A DNA stretch of 20,000 nucleotides from an uncultured virus (IMG/VR IMGVR_UViG_3300031963_000026) (Duplodnaviria > Heunggongvirae > Uroviricota > Caudoviricetes), in the IMG/VR virus record IMGVR_UViG_3300031963_000026, positions 109,363-129,362 of that record. One strand, written 5' to 3'. The notes under the pieces were generated by a model. That model saw only the letters and a program-made list of their open reading frames with translations. It was not told the origin of the DNA and did no database searches. The position numbers and the translations under genes are program-made. Of the stretch, positions 2,119 through 17,504 are shown one piece after another (the stretch's first letter is position 1; each line of letters opens with the position of its first letter).

Positions 2119-3858
2119 TTATTGACCCGGCGCGTTATAAACATCAGGTTCTTTTAATACTGCTTTAACTGCGTTTGAAAATTGTAAATTTTTAGCATCT
2201 ATTTGACCAACAACTCTATTATCTTGCATAATATCCACCCTACCCGTTAATTGGACAGTAACGGGATCAACTCTAACAGTTTCCGGTTTCTTAGTTTCTT
2301 TAATACCTAATTGTTCTATAAGATCACTAACAATACTTCCAACCGCAGGAACAACAATATTTTCTTTAGAAATTTGTGTTTGAAATGTGGATGCAAAATC
2401 AATTGAGGATATTCTGTCAATACTTTTACTAAAGTTTTCAGAAAAATCAACAATAAAGTCGTTAAGAGTTGTTCCAAACTTATCGTTAAACCCTTCAAGG
2501 TCACCCTTAACTAAATCCTTTATTGCATCAACACCACCGGTTTCAAATCTATCTACTAATTGTCGTTGATCTCCGGGACGAAATGCCTGTCTAACACCTT
2601 CAGAAACAATTCTTTGACCTCCTCTTTGTATTTCAATAAGATCTTGGAACACTTTACTACTAGCAATCCCCGACACTCCGAAACCAACTTTAATCGCTGT
2701 CAAATTATTGTTCATCATTTGTTGTGTTGATAATTGTTCCGCAGCAAAATCCTCTAAGGTTTTGGCACTTGTTGTTTGTGCTTTTATCTTTTCTAAATCA
2801 CCTTGTTGTAGTTGTGAAACCAATCTATCTTGACCATCAACTTTAACCGTAAAACCTCCTTTAATCTTATCAAAATTAGCAACACCCGACAAAAACATTT
2901 TTGTTTCTTCGTCAATTCCGGCAACTTTTAATTCTTTTGATACTTCATTAAGTTGAGCCCTTGCCTTAGCCATTTTAACCATGTTATCATAACTAAGTCC
3001 CGTTTCTTCGGAAATTTTCATTAAATCTCGTCTAGCAGCTGGAGGTATCTCAAATTTACCGGTTTCTTTATTCAAAAAACCCATTCTTTCAACCACACCA
3101 CCAATAGCTTCTTGTAGTCCTTCAGTGTCTTCTTGTGCCAAATACATCAACCTAAACGGATCTGCTAAATCACCAACAGCAACCCCTAATCGTTGAAATG
3201 TATTTACCGCACTAATAGCACCTTCAGGGTCAAATACTTTTGACGCAAAATTAAATACGTCGGACATATCAATCTTTAGTAAAGCCGCTTTTGCCGCCAT
3301 CCTTGCCAAACCATCAACACCCGTTTGAAATCCAAATTTATTAGCATTTGATAAATTATCACTAACTTGTTGAAATACTTGATTTGTATTTGCTCCGAAT
3401 TTTCTAGCTTCAGATAATATGGTTAATGTGTTTTCACCAAAATTATTCATGGATTCACCAAAGTCAGCAAATTTTACAAAACTTTGTGTAATGGATTGAA
3501 TACCTAAACCGGTTGCTGTCGCTGCCGCTTGGATCTCAACCATATTTTTAGCACCAACAACAAAACTATATTCAAGTTCAGAGGCGATATTAGAAATTAT
3601 GTCAGCCGCTTTTTGTGTTAAATTAGCAACATCGGTACCTTGGTCAATAACCAAAGCCAAATCTTTAGATGCGTCGGCAATAGTTTTGGAAACCTCTCTA
3701 TAAGTTTCCCTATTGGCAGTCATGTTCTTTTGAACGGACAGAGATTGCTCATCAAGATTTTCACGAAATTCCTGCAGATTTGCAAAAAATTGTTTGGTAA
3801 GAATGTCGGCCAATCCTTGTCCATATTTATTTAAATCGTCAAAAATATTTTGTGCCAT
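2119..3858 (-). CDS. Tape measure protein-like
   Basis: 579 aa, Ala/Gln/Leu-rich, helical-looking; follows tube and chaperone genes in canonical tail gene order. Confidence 0.7.
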   Translation of the reverse strand: MAQNIFDDLNKYGQGLADILTKQFFANLQEFRENLDEQSLSVQKNMTANRETYREVSKTIADASKDLALVIDQGTDVANLTQKAADIISNIASELEYSFVVGAKNMVEIQAAATATGLGIQSITQSFVKFADFGESMNNFGENTLTILSEARKFGANTNQVFQQVSDNLSNANKFGFQTGVDGLARMAAKAALLKIDMSDVFNFASKVFDPEGAISAVNTFQRLGVAVGDLADPFRLMYLAQEDTEGLQEAIGGVVERMGFLNKETGKFEIPPAARRDLMKISEETGLSYDNMVKMAKARAQLNEVSKELKVAGIDEETKMFLSGVANFDKIKGGFTVKVDGQDRLVSQLQQGDLEKIKAQTTSAKTLEDFAAEQLSTQQMMNNNLTAIKVGFGVSGIASSKVFQDLIEIQRGGQRIVSEGVRQAFRPGDQRQLVDRFETGGVDAIKDLVKGDLEGFNDKFGTTLNDFIVDFSENFSKSIDRISSIDFASTFQTQISKENIVVPAVGSIVSDLIEQLGIKETKKPETVRVDPVTVQLTGRVDIMQDNRVVGQIDAKNLQFSNAVKAVLKEPDVYNAPGQ

Positions 3859-3883: not shown

Positions 3884-4042
3884 TTAGTTAGTTTTGGGTG
3901 TTAAATCCGTGACCAACTTGTTCATCAAATATTTCCTAAAATAAGTGGGCATACGATAAAAATCTCCATAAGAAACATGTAGATGCTTCGCCAAATAATA
4001 AAATTCGTCAGATAATACTCTGTTATAATCAGAAGAAAGGGC
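3884..4042 (-). CDS. Frameshift extension of the tail assembly chaperone (GT-like / gp51-like segment)
   Basis: 52 open codons (ALSSDYNRVLSDEFYYLAKHLHVSYGDFYRMPTYFRKYLMNKLVTDLTPKTN) in the +1 frame overlapping the end of 4029..4772. First ATG is at codon 31. Begins right after TTT TTT C at 4049-4043. Confidence 0.65.
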   Translation of the reverse strand, partial: ALSSDYNRVLSDEFYYLAKHLHVSYGDFYRMPTYFRKYLMNKLVTDLTPKTN

Positions 4043-4772
4043 GAAAAAACTCTGCCCCAAAGGCGATATTCAAATCTACCTTTTTTCCGGATGGGGCGAT
4101 AACTGTTTTCACAAGATCCAATCTTGGTTCATTTTCATTAATGAATTTTTTAATGTATTTAGAATCCATAATAGGCATAGATTCAATAAACTTAATAATA
4201 TTTTCAGGGCTAGTATCATCATTAATACTAATAATTGACTTAGCCAATCTTGTAGTCACCGTAGGTGCTTTACCCACAGGATACATCGCATTCATTCTAT
4301 CCAACTCTGTCATATCACCCAATGTCAATGGTTTTAATTTTACCTTCACTTCACTTCTTGGTAAAGTTGTGGTCCATGTCCCATCCTCATTAGGTAATTG
4401 ATTTGTTCGTTTAATATTTAACTCATCTAACATCACATTACCCTTAAACTCATTACCAGTCTCGGGGTCAATTAATTTGAATGTGTATTCGGGACCAAAC
4501 GATGTGTTCCTTAAAAAGATAAGAATAGCTTCAATATCACCATTTAACAAATCTTCGGGTCTAATTCCCGGTTCATATAATTTTGATCTAATTAGTGTTG
4601 TTACTATGGAATCGGAAGGTGCCGACATAATTGTGTTTTCATCCGAAGCGGTCAAATATCCCACTTTCACAGATTCCTTTTTATTTTTATAAAAAATTCC
4701 TCTTGATGGTAAAGGCACCACATCATGTGGTAAATTAAAATCAATTTGTCCGTATTGTGTTGCGTCTTGCAT
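4029..4772 (-). CDS. Tail assembly chaperone / baseplate hub assembly protein (T4 gp26-like)
   Basis: 247 aa with LPSRG..Y, LTASDE, GDIEAILIFLR..SFG..Y and a C-terminal EFF motif; lies between tube and tape measure. Confidence 0.7.
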   Translation of the reverse strand: MQDATQYGQIDFNLPHDVVPLPSRGIFYKNKKESVKVGYLTASDENTIMSAPSDSIVTTLIRSKLYEPGIRPEDLLNGDIEAILIFLRNTSFGPEYTFKLIDPETGNEFKGNVMLDELNIKRTNQLPNEDGTWTTTLPRSEVKVKLKPLTLGDMTELDRMNAMYPVGKAPTVTTRLAKSIISINDDTSPENIIKFIESMPIMDSKYIKKFINENEPRLDLVKTVIAPSGKKVDLNIAFGAEFFRPFF

Positions 4773-11358: not shown

Positions 11359-13113
11359 ATGAATGAAATAAAAATCAATCAACCGCTTGAAATCAGAGCA
11401 CTTGATGTCCTTGATAGTTATTCAGGGGCAAACAATTATATTATTAAATTAAAAATCAAAAAAGATACCAATAAAAAGTTCTATCCAACAAGAAACCAAG
11501 CGGAATATATCTTGGCTTATAAAGATTCCGTTCCAAAAGTTGCAAGAAAATGGGTGGAACTTGATATGTATTTTGCCAATAAATTTGCTGATGAAAAATT
11601 ATTAACCGAAGTTCCAACCAAAATATGGGTTGAGAAGTTATTGGTTGAAAAAGATACGTCTTATCACATTTGGGGTAAGTATTTTGAACACGAGGAATTA
11701 TATGATTTTTGGATTCCTAAATCAGGAATTATTAAAGATACTTCTGTTAAGGTTGTTATTGACTATGAAAAGTATTCACATAGACCGCCTCTTTCACACC
11801 AAAAAGAAGGTATTGAGAAATTAGTTGGAAATAAAAAATACATTCTTGCCGATGATATGGGTTTGGGGAAGACAACACAAACAATTATTGCTGCGTTGGA
11901 GACAGGGGTTGAGAAGGTTTTAATTATTAGTCCTGCATCATTGAAGATCAACTGGCAACGTGAGATTGAAAATTACACGGATAGATCGGTTGTAATTATT
12001 GATGGGAAGAAATGGGAATCCGCCGATTTTGTTATCGTAAATTATGACATTTTGAAAAACTTTCATGATCCAAAAAATCGGGAAGAAAGTCAAATATTGA
12101 ATGAAGGATTTGGGTTGGTCATTATTGATGAAGCACATTATATTCAAAACACACAAGCACAAAGAACAAAACTTATTAACGATTTTGTTAAAAAAATTGA
12201 TAGATTATGGTTATTAACCGGAACACCAATGACATCAAGACCAATAAACTATTATAACTTATTAAGTTTGATTGATTCACCCGTTGCAATGAATTGGATG
12301 GCTTATGTTATGAGATATTGTGAAGGTTATCAATTCAAGGTAGGGAATAGAAAAGTTTGGAATGTTAATGGTGCGTCAAATCTTGAAGAATTAAGAGATA
12401 GAACATCTCGTCAAGTATTAAGAAGATTAAAAACCGACGTATTGGATCTTCCTGAAAAAATCATCACACCCGTTTATCTTAAATTGAAATCTTATGAATA
12501 TGAACGATTGATGGGTGAATATTATGATTGGTATGATAACTCTAAAGAATCTACCTCATTAACCGTACAATTCACTAAATTAATGAAGGTTAGACAGGTT
12601 ATATCGGAAGAAAAAGTAAAATCAACAATTGAATTATGTGAAAACATTATTGAACAAGGAAAGAAAGTAATTGTTTTTACCAATTTTACCAACTCGTTAA
12701 ACTCTATCTTATCTCACTTCGGAAAAAAAGCGGTTGGTCTTGATGGTAGTATGCCTCAAGGTATGAGACAAGATAACGTTGATAAATTCCAAAATGATGA
12801 AAATATTATGGTGTTTGTTGGGAACATTAAAGCAGCTGGGGTTGGTATCACATTAACATCTGCGGAAGTTGTTGTTATGAATGACCTGTCATTTGTACCG
12901 TCAGATCACTCACAAGCCGAGGATCGTGCTTATCGTTATGGTCAAAAAAATAACGTTTTGGTATATTATCCTATTTTTGATAACACGATTGAGGGTATTA
13001 TTTATAACATTCTACAAAAGAAGAAAAACATCTTTGAAACCGTTATGGGGGATAATTTAAGTAAGGGTGATATGGTGGAGGAAATCATGAATATGATTAA
13101 CACAAAAAGATAA
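11359..13113 (+). CDS. SNF2-family helicase/ATPase (SMARCAL1/HARP-like)
   Basis: LADDMGLGKT (Walker A), DEAH, LLTGTP, GVGITLT, QAEDRAYRYGQ motifs. ATG at 11359 preferred over TTG at 11329. Confidence 0.92.
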   Translation: MNEIKINQPLEIRALDVLDSYSGANNYIIKLKIKKDTNKKFYPTRNQAEYILAYKDSVPKVARKWVELDMYFANKFADEKLLTEVPTKIWVEKLLVEKDTSYHIWGKYFEHEELYDFWIPKSGIIKDTSVKVVIDYEKYSHRPPLSHQKEGIEKLVGNKKYILADDMGLGKTTQTIIAALETGVEKVLIISPASLKINWQREIENYTDRSVVIIDGKKWESADFVIVNYDILKNFHDPKNREESQILNEGFGLVIIDEAHYIQNTQAQRTKLINDFVKKIDRLWLLTGTPMTSRPINYYNLLSLIDSPVAMNWMAYVMRYCEGYQFKVGNRKVWNVNGASNLEELRDRTSRQVLRRLKTDVLDLPEKIITPVYLKLKSYEYERLMGEYYDWYDNSKESTSLTVQFTKLMKVRQVISEEKVKSTIELCENIIEQGKKVIVFTNFTNSLNSILSHFGKKAVGLDGSMPQGMRQDNVDKFQNDENIMVFVGNIKAAGVGITLTSAEVVVMNDLSFVPSDHSQAEDRAYRYGQKNNVLVYYPIFDNTIEGIIYNILQKKKNIFETVMGDNLSKGDMVEEIMNMINTKR

Positions 13114-13129
13114 TGATATATTTATCATT

Positions 13130-13453
13130 ATGAAAGTTAAAGTAACAGAAGATAAGTTATACCCTGTTTTCAAAAAATTTATGGAAACTCAGTTTAAGAA
13201 TTATGAATGGATCGAAGATAATTATGATGTTGTTTTGTTTATGAGTCCCGGAGGAGATTCTTATTTGGCGTTGAGTAAAGATAAAACTTTATTAATTTAT
13301 GCTAAAACCGCAAAAAAAATCCTTAATTACCTTCCTATGGAACGATCTATGTTCCTATCACTTATGACTAGATGGGTAGGAGAGACCTTAAATATTAAGG
13401 GTATAACCCTCTCGCAGTTTCAACAGTTGGTTTTGATTAGCCTTAATAGATAA
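13130..13453 (+). CDS. Paralog 1 of MKVKVTE family, unknown function
   Basis: 107 aa; shares MKVKVTE.KLYP.FKKFMETQFK.YEW, IL.Y.PME and WV..T with neighbours. Confidence 0.85.
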   Translation: MKVKVTEDKLYPVFKKFMETQFKNYEWIEDNYDVVLFMSPGGDSYLALSKDKTLLIYAKTAKKILNYLPMERSMFLSLMTRWVGETLNIKGITLSQFQQLVLISLNR

Positions 13454-13472
13454 TAATAATATATTTATCATT

Positions 13473-13814
13473 ATGAAAGTTAAAGTAACAGAAGAAAAGT
13501 TATATCCATTATTCAAAAAATTCATGGAAACTCAGTTTAAGAAATATGAATGGAGAAAAGGTAAATTTGATTCCATTTGGTTCATAGACCCTGAAGGATA
13601 TGGTCACATGGGATTGTTGAAAAATAAAGAGTTATTAATCTATCGTGAGATTAAAGATCAAATTCTTCGCTACATTCCTATGGAAAAATCTATGTTACAA
13701 ACACTTATGAGTAAGTGGGTAGAAGAAACCCTTCAAGTTGAAGGGTTAACCGTTCCCACTGTACCCCAATTTACAATACCGCGTTTTTATGATGGTGATA
13801 CCTTTCCATTATAA
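13473..13814 (+). CDS. Paralog 2 of MKVKVTE family
   Basis: 113 aa, ends GDTFPL. Confidence 0.85.
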   Translation: MKVKVTEEKLYPLFKKFMETQFKKYEWRKGKFDSIWFIDPEGYGHMGLLKNKELLIYREIKDQILRYIPMEKSMLQTLMSKWVEETLQVEGLTVPTVPQFTIPRFYDGDTFPL

Positions 13815-13828
13815 GAATATTTATCAAT

Positions 13829-14164
13829 ATGAAAGTTAAAGTAACAGAAGATAAGTTATACCCTGTTTTCAAAAAATTTATGGAAACTCAGTTTAAGAAT
13901 TATGAATGGAGAAAAGATCGGAATGATGACATTTGGTTTTCAGATCCTAAAGGGTATGGTCATTTGGGATTGGTACACATTAAGGATTTATTGATCTATC
14001 GTGATATTAGAAAAAAAATACTTCGTTATCTTCCTATGGAACAATCTATGTTAAACTCACTTATGAGTAAGTGGGTAGAAGAGACCCTTCAAGTTAAGGG
14101 GTTAGCCCCCACTTTGGCAAGACACGAATCCTATCCATTAGTTGATGGATCCTTTCCATTATAA
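13829..14164 (+). CDS. Paralog 3 of MKVKVTE family
   Basis: 111 aa, ends VDGSFPL. Confidence 0.85.
   Translation: MKVKVTEDKLYPVFKKFMETQFKNYEWRKDRNDDIWFSDPKGYGHLGLVHIKDLLIYRDIRKKILRYLPMEQSMLNSLMSKWVEETLQVKGLAPTLARHESYPLVDGSFPL
14075..14160 (-). CRISPR. Putative single-spacer CRISPR-like unit (degenerate), unit 3
   Basis: 36-nt repeat 14075-14110, 30-nt unique segment 14111-14140, partial repeat GTTGATGGATCCTTTCC from 14141. Confidence 0.4.
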
Positions 14165-14178
14165 GAATATTTATCATT

Positions 14179-14487
14179 ATGAAAGTTAAAGTAACAGAAG
14201 AAAAGTTATATCCAGTATTCAAAAAATTTATGGAAACTCAGTTTAAGAATTATGAATGGACAAAAGATGAATATGGGTGTATTGATTTTGTGGATCCTGA
14301 AGGATTTGGTCATTTGGAATTGGAAAACAATGAAGATTTATGGGTTTATGGTGATATTAAAGATCAAATTCTTCGCTACATTCCTATGGAAGAATATATG
14401 TTAGAATCACTTATGGGTAGATGGGTTGGAGATACCTTTCAAATTGAGGGTATAAACACCAGTATAGAATCGTTTCCAAATTTTTAA
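14179..14487 (+). CDS. Paralog 4 of MKVKVTE family
   Basis: 102 aa; TAA falls inside the variable segment and in-frame IVENAFPL* follows. Confidence 0.85.
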   Translation: MKVKVTEEKLYPVFKKFMETQFKNYEWTKDEYGCIDFVDPEGFGHLELENNEDLWVYGDIKDQILRYIPMEEYMLESLMGRWVGDTFQIEGINTSIESFPNF

Positions 14488-14510
14488 ATCGTTGAAAATG
14501 CCTTTCCATT
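14425..14510 (-). CRISPR. Putative single-spacer CRISPR-like unit with type VI-B-like repeat, unit 4
   Basis: Repeat 14425-14460 (minus: GGTGTTTATACCCTCAATTTGAAAGGTATCTCCAAC), 30-nt spacer 14461-14490, partial repeat GTTGAAAATGCCTTTCC from 14491. Confidence 0.5.
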
Positions 14511-14529
14511 GTAAGAATATTTATATGGT

Positions 14530-14820
14530 ATGAAAGTCAAGGTAACAGAAGAAAAGTTATATCCAGTTTTCAAAAAATTCATGGAAACTCAGTTTAAGAA
14601 ATATGAATGGAGAAAAGATGAACTTGGGACTATTTGGTTTATGGATCCTGAAGGATTTGGTGATCTGGAATTGGGAGATAAAAATTTATGGGTTCATCGT
14701 GATATTAAAAATAAAATTCTTCGTTATCTTCCTATGGAAGAATCTATGTTAGACTCGCTTATATCTAGATGGGTTGGAGATACTTTTCAAATTGAGGGTA
14801 TAAACATCCTCGAGATGTGA
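14530..14820 (+). CDS. Paralog 5 of MKVKVTE family
   Basis: 96 aa; TGA inside the variable segment, then in-frame LPW*EEVGDTFPL*. Confidence 0.85.
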   Translation: MKVKVTEEKLYPVFKKFMETQFKKYEWRKDELGTIWFMDPEGFGDLELGDKNLWVHRDIKNKILRYLPMEESMLDSLISRWVGDTFQIEGINILEM

Positions 14821-14858
14821 TTGCCATGGTAGGAGGAAGTTGGTGATACCTTTCCATT
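14773..14858 (-). CRISPR. Putative single-spacer CRISPR-like unit with type VI-B-like repeat, unit 5
   Basis: Repeat 14773-14808 (minus: GATGTTTATACCCTCAATTTGAAAAGTATCTCCAAC), 30-nt spacer 14809-14838, partial repeat GTTGGTGATACCTTTCC from 14839. Confidence 0.5.
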
Positions 14859-14877
14859 ATAAGAATATTTATATGGT

Positions 14878-15552
14878 ATGAAACTACTTGAGAGAAAAAT
14901 ACATTTACTAGAATCTTTATTGGATGGTAAGAATATTTTTGAAGCCAATTATAAAGCACAAAAATTAGATTATAACTTAAATTCATTATCAGATTTTATC
15001 GGTAAAGATACTATGGATGTTCATTATAATGGACATTATAAAACTTACCTTAAAAAATTAAATGAACTTCTACCGGATGAAAAAATGATCCCAATAGAAG
15101 ATTTAATTAAAAAAATATCAAGGTATAACAAGAAAATTAGGAATAATGCTGGTGGTGTATATAACCACCAACTATTTTGGAAAATGTTATCACCAAACAA
15201 AACAAAACCATCTAAAGAACTATTAGAAAAAATTAACAAAGATTTTGGTTCTTATGATGAGTTCAAACAAAAGTTTGAAAAAGTGGCATTAGACAGGTTT
15301 GGTTCAGGATGGGTTTGGTTAATTATGGGTAAAAGTGGTAGGTTACGTGTCGTATCTACACCCAATCAGGACAACCCCGAGATGAATATTATTAGAAATG
15401 GAGGAAAAATTTTATTGGGGCTTGACATTTGGGAACATGCGTATTATCTTAGCTACCGAAATGAGAGAGACCGATATATCAAAAACTTTTGGAAAGTGGT
15501 AAATTGGGATTTCGTAAGTTCAGAATATCAGAAACTTAAACCAACTAAATAA
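14878..15552 (+). CDS. sod: Fe/Mn superoxide dismutase
   Basis: TMDVHYNGHY, NNAGGVYNHQLFW, FGSGWVWL, TPNQDNP and LDIWEHAYY signature; metal ligands appear intact. Confidence 0.95.
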   Translation: MKLLERKIHLLESLLDGKNIFEANYKAQKLDYNLNSLSDFIGKDTMDVHYNGHYKTYLKKLNELLPDEKMIPIEDLIKKISRYNKKIRNNAGGVYNHQLFWKMLSPNKTKPSKELLEKINKDFGSYDEFKQKFEKVALDRFGSGWVWLIMGKSGRLRVVSTPNQDNPEMNIIRNGGKILLGLDIWEHAYYLSYRNERDRYIKNFWKVVNWDFVSSEYQKLKPTK

Positions 15553-16391: not shown

Positions 16392-17504
16392 ATGGCAATT
16401 ATCCCTGAACCAGAAAGAAGTCAATTATACAAAAGAATTAAAAATCTTTTAGGTGCCCCAATCCGATCAGTAGAGATTGAGGATGAAATGATGGATTCAC
16501 TTATGGAATTATCCATTGGTGATTATAGCCAATACGTGTTAGATTGGTTGATAGAATCTCAATGGACATCTCTTTATGGATTGAATTTAGATGAGAAATC
16601 CGTTGCAAACGCACTTGTTAGAAGAACTTTAGATTGGGAAACACAATATACCTATGCATATTCAAAAATTGTAGGATTACAAACAAATGGTCCTTGGGTG
16701 TTAAAACAAGATTATTTTGATTTAATGCCAAACCAACAACTTTATGAGATTCCCGCAGGAAGAGAAATAAACGAATTAATGTGGTTTACAAGACCTGCAT
16801 TAAATAACACATTGTTTGATCCTTGGTCTATGGGTTTCTTGGGTGGTCCCGGTATTGGTGGTCCTGCGGGATTTTCACAGATGGGGTTCCAAGGAGGTTA
16901 TTTTATGATGTCAGCATATGATATGGTGGCACGTATGCAAGATATTAACCTTAAATCAAGAATTTTAGGTTCGGATCTTACATATAAAATCACCGCACTT
17001 CCCGACGGAAAAAGAATGGTTCACCTTTTGAATGTTCCCGGTGGTAAATTTAATTTTGGTAATATTGGATATAATCAATATAGAGTATTCTATTGGTATT
17101 ACGATACCACAGACGATAACAGAAACGATTGTTTAGCCGCTAATCCCGATATTGTTAAGTTACCTTCAGATGTTCCATTGGATAACCTATCCTGGGTAGA
17201 TCTTAACGCACCCGCCCAACAATGGGTTCGTCGTTGGTTTACGGCTTACGTTAAAGAAACTTTATCAAGAGTTAGAGGGAAGTATTCGGGTAACTTAAAA
17301 ACACCTGATTCCGAACTTCAAATGGAATATACAACACTTCAAACCGAAGCTAAAGACGAAAAATCTACACTTTTAGAAGAACTTAAATTACGTTTAGAAA
17401 GACTACGTCCTGAAAAACAAATGGAAAAAGAAGCATCAATTGCTGAAAACCTAAATAAACAACTTAAATTCAGAGCGTTTAAAGTCCCAATTCAAGCAAT
17501 CTAA
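16392..17504 (+). CDS. Neck / head-tail connector protein (gp13-like)
   Basis: N-terminal LYKRIKNLLGAPIRSVEI and C-terminal WVRRW..A..KE.L.RVRGKY motifs typical of myovirus neck proteins. Confidence 0.65.
   Translation: MAIIPEPERSQLYKRIKNLLGAPIRSVEIEDEMMDSLMELSIGDYSQYVLDWLIESQWTSLYGLNLDEKSVANALVRRTLDWETQYTYAYSKIVGLQTNGPWVLKQDYFDLMPNQQLYEIPAGREINELMWFTRPALNNTLFDPWSMGFLGGPGIGGPAGFSQMGFQGGYFMMSAYDMVARMQDINLKSRILGSDLTYKITALPDGKRMVHLLNVPGGKFNFGNIGYNQYRVFYWYYDTTDDNRNDCLAANPDIVKLPSDVPLDNLSWVDLNAPAQQWVRRWFTAYVKETLSRVRGKYSGNLKTPDSELQMEYTTLQTEAKDEKSTLLEELKLRLERLRPEKQMEKEASIAENLNKQLKFRAFKVPIQAI

Follow-up and report, generated by a model that had tools for sequence, protein, structure and literature searches.

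How can a gene end in a repeat that appears again about 30 nucleotides (nt) downstream, beyond a segment that differs from copy to copy and that stop codons may interrupt? The question is raised by a tandem series of small genes in a 20,000-nt window, the whole stretch of DNA analysed here, which is the last 20 kb of the 129,362-bp record of an uncultured tailed virus in IMG/VR (IMGVR_UViG_3300031963_000026). A preliminary description, made from the letters of the window, proposed that selection acts here on DNA or RNA rather than on a peptide, and that the variable segments are foreign inserts serving as guides. Our analysis supports both proposals. Each complete unit consists of a gene of about 95 codons, whose last 36 nt are a repeat of the type found in CRISPR arrays, followed by a spacer and a truncated copy of the repeat. 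We consider it probable that the virus carries these units as orphan mini-CRISPR arrays and that a host effector uses their guides to act on a family of rival phages.

The variable segments and the gene that leads into them

Tandem Repeats Finder reports a 350-bp period in 4.8 copies (13118-14803), which corresponds to five small genes of 96-113 codons, and three more units on the other strand at 11.9-12.9 kb bring the carrier record to eight. When the eight units are aligned, the last 12 codons of the gene, (W)VGETFQIEGINT, are the 36-nt block itself, which reads GTTGGAGATACCTTTCAAATTGAGGGTATAAACACC in unit 4. What was not apparent to the preliminary description is that a real, conserved protein gene ends, in frame, with this upstream copy. 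The downstream block, GTTG...CCTTTCCATT(A/G)TAAGAATA, is present in units 2-5 of the window and begins with the first 17 nt of the 36-mer again before diverging (...CCATTATAAGAATA), the terminal repeat being truncated after 17-24 nt. Among the seven units with the full layout, the segment between the two blocks measures 30 nt in five, 31 in one and 36 in one, such that the constant 30-nt distance described earlier holds for units 3, 4 and 5 and fails for unit 2 (36 nt) and for one extra unit elsewhere in the genome (31 nt). Across seven carrier units, the upstream 36 nt show a mean pairwise identity of 0.77 and the variable segment one of 0.28; the downstream block reaches 0.81 over 17 nt and 0.87 over 29 nt. 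The value for the spacers is the level of unrelated sequence, and the pattern of the unit as a whole is well beyond chance.

Stop codons do fall inside the variable segments of units 4 and 5 (Table 1), while units 2 and 3 are open to ...GDTFPL and ...DGSFPL, each followed by a stop. The downstream block is kept even where it is untranslated: compared with the M6 copy, its 29 nt differ at one position in unit 5 and six in unit 4, both untranslated, against two and three in units 2 and 3, where it is translated (a count made by eye), which amounts to no clear decay. The check that had been suggested, a count of stop codons against random expectation, was made on 10 leader-proximal spacers, four of which contain an in-frame stop compared to 4.63 +/- 1.55 in shuffles of the same bases, and this is the chance rate. 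Another three of the 10 are of a length that shifts the frame (29, 31 and 31 nt), and therefore seven of the 10 spacers cannot translate the downstream block, yet the block is conserved. An alternative genetic code or recoding is ruled out, as TAA, TGA and TAG all occur in the segments. The segments are also not the target of a diversity-generating retroelement, since they are unrelated to one another (0.28) rather than variants of a template, and a Pfam scan of 126 of the 129 open reading frames (ORFs) outside the window and of 19 ORFs within it found no reverse-transcriptase family.

Relatives of the units carry longer arrays. Public metagenomes contain 70 homologous proteins, several with C-termini that read as a 12-residue repeat, 10 residues, the 12-residue repeat and 10 residues again, and at the DNA level the metagenome contig L046 contains the same gene followed by four spacers (29, 30, 30 and 30 nt), together with a second copy followed by two (31 and 29 nt). 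No reading frame can be maintained across the repeat periods of L046, which are 65, 66 and 67 nt, and therefore this is not a peptide repeat. Chance-level stops, the conserved untranslated block and these periods together support selection on DNA or RNA. The relatives have up to four full or nearly full 36-nt repeats plus a truncated terminal copy, where the window units have one full repeat and one cut to 17 nt; the arrays thus include two or more near-identical direct repeats within the 23-50 nt range of CRISPR repeats. Fourteen spacers read at the DNA level are 29-31 nt long, apart from one of 36, and are unique, with a mean pairwise identity of 0.26. In contigs from four public runs, the end of the repeat leads into further segments of 29-32 nt and then into a repeat start or a truncated repeat, and these contigs hold four segments found nowhere else as well as a variant of the M8 spacer that differs at six positions. 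Two homologous proteins, P0075 and P0084, agree at every shared residue except for one substitution in the terminal repeat, and differ by one 22-residue (66-nt) repeat-plus-spacer unit, a gain or loss of a whole unit in which the two directions are indistinguishable. The extra unit lies between the gene and the shared spacer, and therefore the gene is on the leader-proximal side. We conclude that the variable 30-mers are CRISPR spacers, their foreign origin being established through the arrays of relatives, as described below.

Some units lack an array. Unit 1 and a minus-strand unit of L046 (3228-3551) have a drifted repeat-encoded C-terminus (VGETLNIKGITL and VGETFKFKRIEA) and have lost the downstream repeat. 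Unit 1 is a decayed unit, and its type of ending is kept in the relatives P0044, P0045 and L020.

The gene itself is under protein-level constraint. Its 83-codon body is open by chance in no more than 0.15% of shuffles per unit, and across 12 units the frame is open through the first repeat in every one. Over the first 24 codons, differences at codon positions 1, 2 and 3 are 0.053, 0.030 and 0.189, which indicates purifying selection on the protein; a hidden antisense RNA over this conserved stretch is unlikely given the same pattern. Codons 25-83 differ almost equally at the three positions (0.226, 0.213 and 0.242), indicating relaxed or diversifying change. A confident AlphaFold2 model of the unit 3 protein, built from 44 sequences (pLDDT 89.6, pTM 0.81), places the repeat-encoded residues at the end of the last helix and in a strand. 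This fold has no match in the PDB (Foldseek best E 0.16), a VIA wide search reached a best Z of 4.3 with weak winged-helix-like rows, and neither the ESM Atlas nor Pfam, PHROGs, NCBIfam or PADLOC returned anything for the protein.

A profile search of 1.84 billion cluster representatives recovered 105 clusters at E up to 1e-3, 15 of them at E up to 1e-10. Many distant members end, as read at the protein level, in two copies of a 12-residue repeat separated by 10 variable residues, and the number of repeats reaches five. Subfamilies differ in the sequence of the repeat (examples are P0134, P0146, P0164, P0183, P0203 and P0223), which in distant members changes along with the protein C-terminus while the rhythm of 12 codons and 10 codons is kept. 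The fusion of gene and array thus appears to recur across a diverse protein family, the array of the distant members being read from the peptide rhythm alone. In one diverged lineage (P0071-P0073, 206-216 residues), the gene caller joins successive units into two-unit fusion proteins, and P0073 is labelled "DNA-directed RNA polymerase delta subunit" in one source, which looks like a mislabel. Tentatively, the small gene and the array could form a single evolutionary and functional module, a previously unrecognised, widespread and presumably viral family in which the 3′ end of the gene is both part of a protein fold and the leader-proximal repeat. In such a module, the protein may be the missing partner, one that binds the repeat or loads the guide, or one that works in adaptation or as a leader factor and so allows Cas1-Cas2 of the host to place spacers in phage DNA; alternatively, it might act as a modulator, turning Cas13b or a dCas12f-like effector of the host towards guides supplied by the phage. 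If this is true, the units would represent a minimal "CRISPR-associated" cassette, carried by a virus and multiplying through tandem duplication.

Spacer targets, related repeats and the guide strand

The spacers have a mean GC content of 41%, against 33% for the phage, and those of related arrays lead to another phage. Spacer X1b of L046 matches L205:1498-1527 at 30 of 30 nt in a scan of IMG/VR with its central 24 nt, with no repeat beside the site. Its protospacer lies inside a 189-residue ORF flanked by a head-maturation protease on one side and a capsid-like gene on the other, and is retained in related loci at 29/30 in six and 28/30 in four. The capsid of this target has at least 594 relatives in IMG/VR, and its family includes five records of 27-32 kb that are 95-100% complete, which are unrelated to the carrier rather than close relatives of it. 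The target phages (L205-L295, for example G406 of 30,964 bp) are very abundant and carry about 90% of their long ORFs on one strand. When spacer peptides in the frame of the unit gene were compared with six-frame translations of 91 target loci, four spacers matched at 10 of 10 residues (SLLSNKVWLL, in the capsid gene, KGTEIVSNKF, PYPMRLAWDT and WKMSYLENQL) and one at 8 of 9 (YNTICRKYS), a stringency that none of 86 shuffled peptides reaches. A further match of 8/10 (SCRGNFYRYG) is tentative, as 0.8 of 50 shuffled peptides reach that level. Where checked, these peptide-level matches fall in frames unrelated to those of the target genes. Six spacers from the arrays of relatives therefore match one phage family of about 30 kb, which spacers of two diverged phage lineages hit repeatedly, and the earlier proposal that the 30-mers are foreign is borne out for this lineage: its spacers target other, unrelated viruses. 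The known targets fall within coding regions, those of the head module and others, rather than in promoter regions, and five of eight dataset prefixes of jumbo-phage contigs also occur in the names of target-phage contigs.

Other searches gave less. Its M8 spacer, which lies outside the window, matches a target genome weakly (24/30). In IMG/VR, the central 24-mers of the unit 5 spacer (U5) and of M7 occur in the carrier's own arrays alone, and that of X3a occurs nowhere. The array region found nothing in INPHARED by blastn at 1e-5, with hits at E up to 5 being at chance level, and a comparison of the window array with five Parapedobacter/Sphingobacterium genomes and 401 Sphingobacteriales genomes returned repeat-to-repeat and chance-level hits only. 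No spacer targets another site in the 129-kb genome, and the spacers of 122 bacterial arrays have no credible match to the target phages or to the jumbo phage. The flanks of four protospacers share no adjacent motif, and the single 5′-G reported for one homologue is present at one of the four.

The repeat belongs to a family with bacterial relatives. Rfam (all families, E up to 10, positions 12900-15100) gave no CRISPR-DR or other credible family, and a scan of the locus for sigma-70 promoters and terminators found no more than in shuffles. A looser three-repeat pattern recovered at least 122 bacterial arrays with a geometry of 36-nt repeats and 30-nt spacers, mostly from Bacteroidota by record title. 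Among the matches listed, the closest is Parapedobacter luteus (29/36), followed by other Parapedobacter, Sphingobacterium, Thermaurantimonas and Dysgonomonas at 25-27/36. In all five flanked Sphingobacteriaceae loci, the array adjoins genes for an extracytoplasmic function (ECF) sigma factor of 271-285 residues and a TnpB-family protein of 364 residues (43-67 bits against NCBIfam NF040570, below its cut-off of 100), and the repeat strand is antisense to the operon. This pairing is the arrangement described for RNA-guided transcription by dCas12f-sigmaE (PMC13472631; this and the other papers cited here are drawn on in excerpt). These loci (L100, L055, L086, L082 and L129) consist of mini-arrays 100-1000 bp apart with half-repeats at every boundary, where the first repeat keeps its 3′ half and the last its 5′ half, and the terminal repeat of the phage is cut likewise. 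Other related arrays adjoin cas13b (NF038190, 654-941 bits), and one adjoins csm genes; the phage repeat, which ends in ...CACC, is 23-27/36 identical to those beside cas13b.

The phage records themselves have yielded no effector. No Cas family was detected by Pfam among 145 ORFs or by NCBIfam and PADLOC among 25 large or unknown ORFs, four phage records contain no match to the Cas13b model NF038190 or to the bacterial TnpB-like protein, and cas genes do not adjoin the arrays in the phage records searched. Two ORFs of 271 and 370 residues 3′ of the array have the sizes of the bacterial sigma/TnpB pair but proved unrelated to it, and the sigma factor of the phage is likewise unrelated to the bacterial ECF sigma. 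An rpoE-dcas12f operon is thus absent beside the array in the phage records, and the likeness to those loci lies in the repeat sequence and the mini-array layout.

Which strand would serve as guide is a matter on which the clues divide. The gene lies on the leader side and the truncated repeat at the far end, as expected for sense transcription, and a repeat of the unit 4 type folds better in the sense orientation (-7.9 versus -4.9 kcal/mol), because two of its pairs are G-U. Sense transcription of the array would come free with the mRNA, and an effector that reads a repeat followed by its guide could use every spacer. The layout of repeat then guide is that of type V, I and III systems. Pointing to antisense, the sense repeat of the phage finds its counterpart, in 11 of 12 bacterial loci, on the strand antisense to the effector gene, with an identity of 23-28/36 in that orientation against 16-23/36 in the other. 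In the targets, nearly all long ORFs share one strand, and six of seven protospacers are on it (one-sided binomial 0.06, not significant); therefore antisense guides would pair with mRNA, as natural type VI-B spacers do with that of their targets (Hoikkala 2021, PMC8092290). This sample is biased, consisting mostly of peptides that had to be open in the frame of the gene, and strand-biased spacer uptake could also yield six of seven; the tentative SCRGNFYRYG match has the same direction as the six. Decay of the terminal repeat in cas13b loci points both ways.

Proposed function, rival explanations and known systems

In the mechanism that we favour, the last 36 nt of the gene double as the first repeat of an array made up of this full repeat, one spacer and the truncated terminal repeat, with spacers that this lineage has taken from other phages. 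Following transcription and processing, guide RNAs would be loaded, most likely, onto a host effector that recognises the 36-nt repeat family of Bacteroidota, either Cas13b or a dCas12f/TnpB-like protein, a host effector being proposed because the phage fragments yielded no cas gene. Such guides would be directed at the co-occurring phages of about 30 kb, resulting in inter-phage competition or superinfection exclusion to the benefit of the carrier. The earlier guide model is supported to this extent.

Several points weigh against this mechanism. All solid target matches come from the arrays of relatives, five of the six at the peptide level, and the four spacers of the window have no target in INPHARED, in 401 Sphingobacteriales genomes or in the carrier's own 129 kb, nor has U5 one in IMG/VR. 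Among 185,579 species, each represented by a single genome, none contains a match to a degenerate 30-nt pattern covering all phage repeat variants, although the host may simply lie outside this collection, and the 7-nt difference from the nearest bacterial array might prevent recognition. The orientation clues conflict. Cas13b requires an entire repeat on the 3′ side of its guide (Migur 2026, PMC13187072) and the terminal repeat is truncated, and therefore an effector of this type could use the single-spacer units only if they were transcribed antisense. The phage records are 14-55% complete, so the phage may carry an effector of its own. Finally, among public runs holding the locus there is no RNA run, and the contigs show neither strand nor ends.

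These weaknesses leave room for other uses of the same arrangement. One, which we regard as unlikely, is that the repeat copies are RNA decoys that sequester Cas13b or a dCas12f-like effector of the host, with spacers that are incidental and, for example, recombined from host arrays. There are at least eight repeat copies per partial genome, no cas gene was found, and, if sense transcription is combined with the guide-repeat rule, the conserved gene sequence before each full repeat gives the layout of a non-targeting extraneous CRISPR RNA (crRNA), a kind of molecule that reduces Cas13b defence about 1000-fold when overexpressed (Migur 2026, PMC13187072). Repeat-mimicking anti-CRISPR RNAs are known in phages (Camara-Wilpert 2023, PMC10651486), and the spacers of the window lack a known target. 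Decoys, however, need neither spacers nor a conserved, truncated second repeat at a fixed distance, and would not account for spacers of two diverged lineages that repeatedly match the same rival family or for arrays that change by whole repeat-plus-spacer units beside the gene; the repeat is also only 29/36 identical to the nearest bacterial repeat among the matches listed. Somewhat more doubtful is a regulatory role, where the arrays feed a dCas12f-sigmaE machine or a nuclease-dead repressor, of the host or of an unseen part of the phage, and genes on rivals or the host are switched on or off instead of nucleic acid being destroyed. Targets inside the coding regions of a rival phage rather than at promoters do not suit such a role, nor do the four protospacer flanks without a common motif (5′-G at one of four), the bacterial TnpB-like homologue not found in four phage records, or the unrelatedness of the phage sigma factor and the 271- and 370-residue ORFs to the bacterial pair. 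What speaks for it is that the closest repeats (25-29/36, with the 3′ end ...ACACC) lie in Parapedobacter and Sphingobacterium beside the ECF-sigma and TnpB-family pair in five of five flanked loci, in mini-arrays whose half-repeat ends are like those of the phage units. The rpoE-dcas12f loci of Sphingobacterium have discontinuous arrays, susCD targets and a guide 3′ of a repeat-like scaffold (Hoffmann, PMC13472631), a layout that fits sense transcription of the phage units.

The units could also have no present function as arrays. That they are dead cargo, captured from a host or left from a lost phage CRISPR system and kept as part of the gene and as the start region of the next one, seems improbable to us: the truncated repeat is 0.81 identical even in terminal units, followed by superoxide dismutase after unit 5 and by unrelated sequence after M8, the gene-plus-array design recurs with different repeats in a protein family of 105 clusters, and the spacers are diverse, with one pair of alleles that differs by a whole unit. 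Signs of decay do exist, in unit 1 and one L046 unit, where the repeat has decayed and the downstream block is lost, and in an internal L046 repeat without its 5′ half; the lack of any detected cas gene, and of an RNA run among the public runs holding the locus, would also be expected of relics. Least credible is hypervariability of the protein, with the 10-residue segment as a C-terminal loop between two copies of a VGETF strand, diversified by selection or targeted mutagenesis. The middle of the protein does change about equally at all codon positions, and some relatives are open through three or four segments without stops. Against this stand stops at the chance rate, including all three stop codons, so that recoding cannot restore the frame, as well as periods of 65 and 67 nt and segments that are unrelated (0.28), that match genes of another phage in frames other than the target's own, and that are accompanied by no reverse-transcriptase family among the ORFs scanned. 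The protospacer found at the DNA level and the frame-breaking lengths refute hypervariability for practical purposes.

Read as orphan mini-arrays, the units resemble several known systems without coinciding with any of them. The portogloboviruses SPV1 and SPV2 also carry arrays of one or two spacers without cas genes that are aimed at other viruses and presumably use the host effector in inter-virus competition (Medvedeva 2019, PMC6858448; reviewed in PMC11656645). Their repeats are identical to those of the host, whereas the best bacterial relative here is 29/36 among the matches listed; they mostly target close relatives of the carrier, whereas the targets here are unrelated phages of about 30 kb; and here the array joins a gene in frame and occurs in at least eight copies. 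The compact arrays of huge phages share the jumbo carrier and the lack of adaptation and interference genes, which are absent there and were not found here; their repeats resemble host repeats, some of their spacers match genes for structural proteins in other phages, and a reliance on Cas proteins of the host has been proposed (Al-Shayeb 2020, PMC7162821). The excerpts of that paper describe neither gene overlap nor tandem cassettes, and do not mention the Bacteroidota 36/30 repeat family. In the rpoE-dcas12f arrays of Sphingobacteriaceae (PMC13472631), the repeats are nearest in sequence, the 36/30 geometry and mini-array form are shared, and the end repeats keep their spacer-side half; these arrays adjoin the ECF-sigma and TnpB-like genes and target host susCD, whereas phage records show neither gene and the spacers of this lineage match a rival phage. 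Type VI-B arrays have the same 36-nt repeats and 30-nt spacers (Migur 2026, PMC13187072) in the same repeat family, and natural arrays require coding-strand protospacers (PMC8092290), which most of those found here would fit if read antisense. Type VI-B repeats, however, end in ...CAAC rather than ...CACC, and the phage has no cas13b match in its records and just one complete repeat in its single-spacer units. RNA anti-CRISPRs and solitary repeat units (PMC10651486) are likewise phage-borne CRISPR repeats without cas genes, but are repeats without functional spacers, whereas all units here except unit 1 carry a spacer and a second repeat, and protospacers exist for spacers of related arrays.

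A keyword search of the literature (full text without supplements) found no case of a conserved gene whose 3′ end supplies, in frame, the first repeat of an array, no tandem gene-plus-array cassettes and no viral use of this Bacteroidota repeat family. Phage arrays that lack cas genes and exploit host effectors are known as free-standing only; here, the array starts in frame inside a gene, and the cassette is present in at least eight copies per genome. This raises the questions of whether coding sequence can act as CRISPR leader and first repeat, whether the encoded protein aids guide biogenesis or spacer uptake, and which effector freshwater Bacteroidota phages hijack, the RNA-targeting Cas13b or the dCas12f-sigmaE machinery. 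In addition, gene callers render such arrays as variable protein tails, which hides them in protein databases, and the hidden arrays can be mined for virus-virus targeting networks, as was done here at the peptide level.

Feature coordinates and the carrier phage

Table 1. Units of gene, repeat and spacer in the window (position 1 is the first letter of the 20,000-nt stretch)
Feature	Position	Strand	Remarks
Unit 1 gene, 107 aa	13130..13453	+	repeat-like 3′ end 13376-13411 diverged; no recognisable downstream repeat
Unit 2 gene, 113 aa	13473..13814	+	open through spacer into truncated repeat
Unit 2 first repeat, 36 nt	13719..13754	+	perfect 9-bp hairpin variant, -11.8 kcal/mol, z -4.0; forms the final 12 conserved codons of the gene
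Unit 2 spacer, 36 nt	13755..13790	+	
Unit 2 truncated terminal repeat and conserved tail	13791..13819	+	stop codon within
Unit 3 gene, 111 aa	13829..14164	+	open through spacer; protein used for modelling
Unit 3 first repeat	14075..14110	+	
Unit 3 spacer, 30 nt	14111..14140	+	
Unit 3 truncated terminal repeat and tail	14141..14169	+	
Unit 4 gene, 102 aa	14179..14487	+	TAA 14485-14487 inside spacer
Unit 4 first repeat, GTTGGAGATACCTTTCAAATTGAGGGTATAAACACC	14425..14460	+	
Unit 4 spacer, 30 nt, 23% GC	14461..14490	+	first base is the start of the region first noted
Unit 4 truncated terminal repeat and tail, untranslated	14491..14519	+	most diverged copy
Unit 5 gene, 96 aa	14530..14820	+	TGA 14818-14820 inside spacer; further in-frame TAG 14830-14832
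Unit 5 first repeat	14773..14808	+	
Unit 5 spacer, 30 nt, 50% GC	14809..14838	+	
Unit 5 truncated terminal repeat and tail, untranslated	14839..14867	+	1/29 differences; superoxide dismutase gene next; the region first noted ends within the downstream block

Directly 3′ of unit 5 lies an Fe/Mn superoxide dismutase gene (window 14878-15552; Pfam Sod_Fe_N, E 2e-18, and Sod_Fe_C, E 3e-39), and the sequence upstream of it is of the unit type (TAAGAATATTTATATGGTATG). The 370-residue ORF further on (window 16392-17504) has a weak PHROG match to the head-tail adaptor phrog_211 (E 2e-9, residues 274-336).

The carrier is a myophage, with a T4-type baseplate, tail sheath and tube, an SNF2 helicase and a family-B DNA polymerase identified by Pfam. 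CheckV rates its 129,362-bp record as 43% complete, and therefore it is a jumbo phage. The record was found in 20 public runs from 16 studies, labelled mostly as freshwater or lake-water metagenomes, and a tblastn search with its DNA polymerase and SNF2 helicase returned no close cultured relative. At least eight copies of gene plus array occupy two loci of the carrier fragment, and a 165-kb relative has three such loci.

The carrier also encodes an Omp28-family outer-membrane protein (PF11551), a family linked to Bacteroidota, and its own sigma factor, which has regions 2 and 4 only (L048:963-1748 and L049:18176-18979 are this gene and the sigma factor). Both give weak indications as to the host and to phage-directed transcription. 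Within a D12 adenine methyltransferase gene on the minus strand (L049:8207-8232, genome approximately 46195-46232), 22-26 nt resemble the repeats of Parabacteroides and Cytophagales arrays (92-95%, E 0.003-0.01); this is probably chance, as no neighbouring repeat or spacer was seen there. Elsewhere on the minus strand (L048:2422-4515, genome 21422-23515), thymidylate synthase is divided between two ORFs, a C-terminal part at 2422-3159 and an N-terminal part at 4006-4515, with an ORF for an HNH/NUMOD3/I-TevI-type endonuclease (L048:3125-3838) between the halves, which looks like an intron or the insertion of a homing endonuclease.

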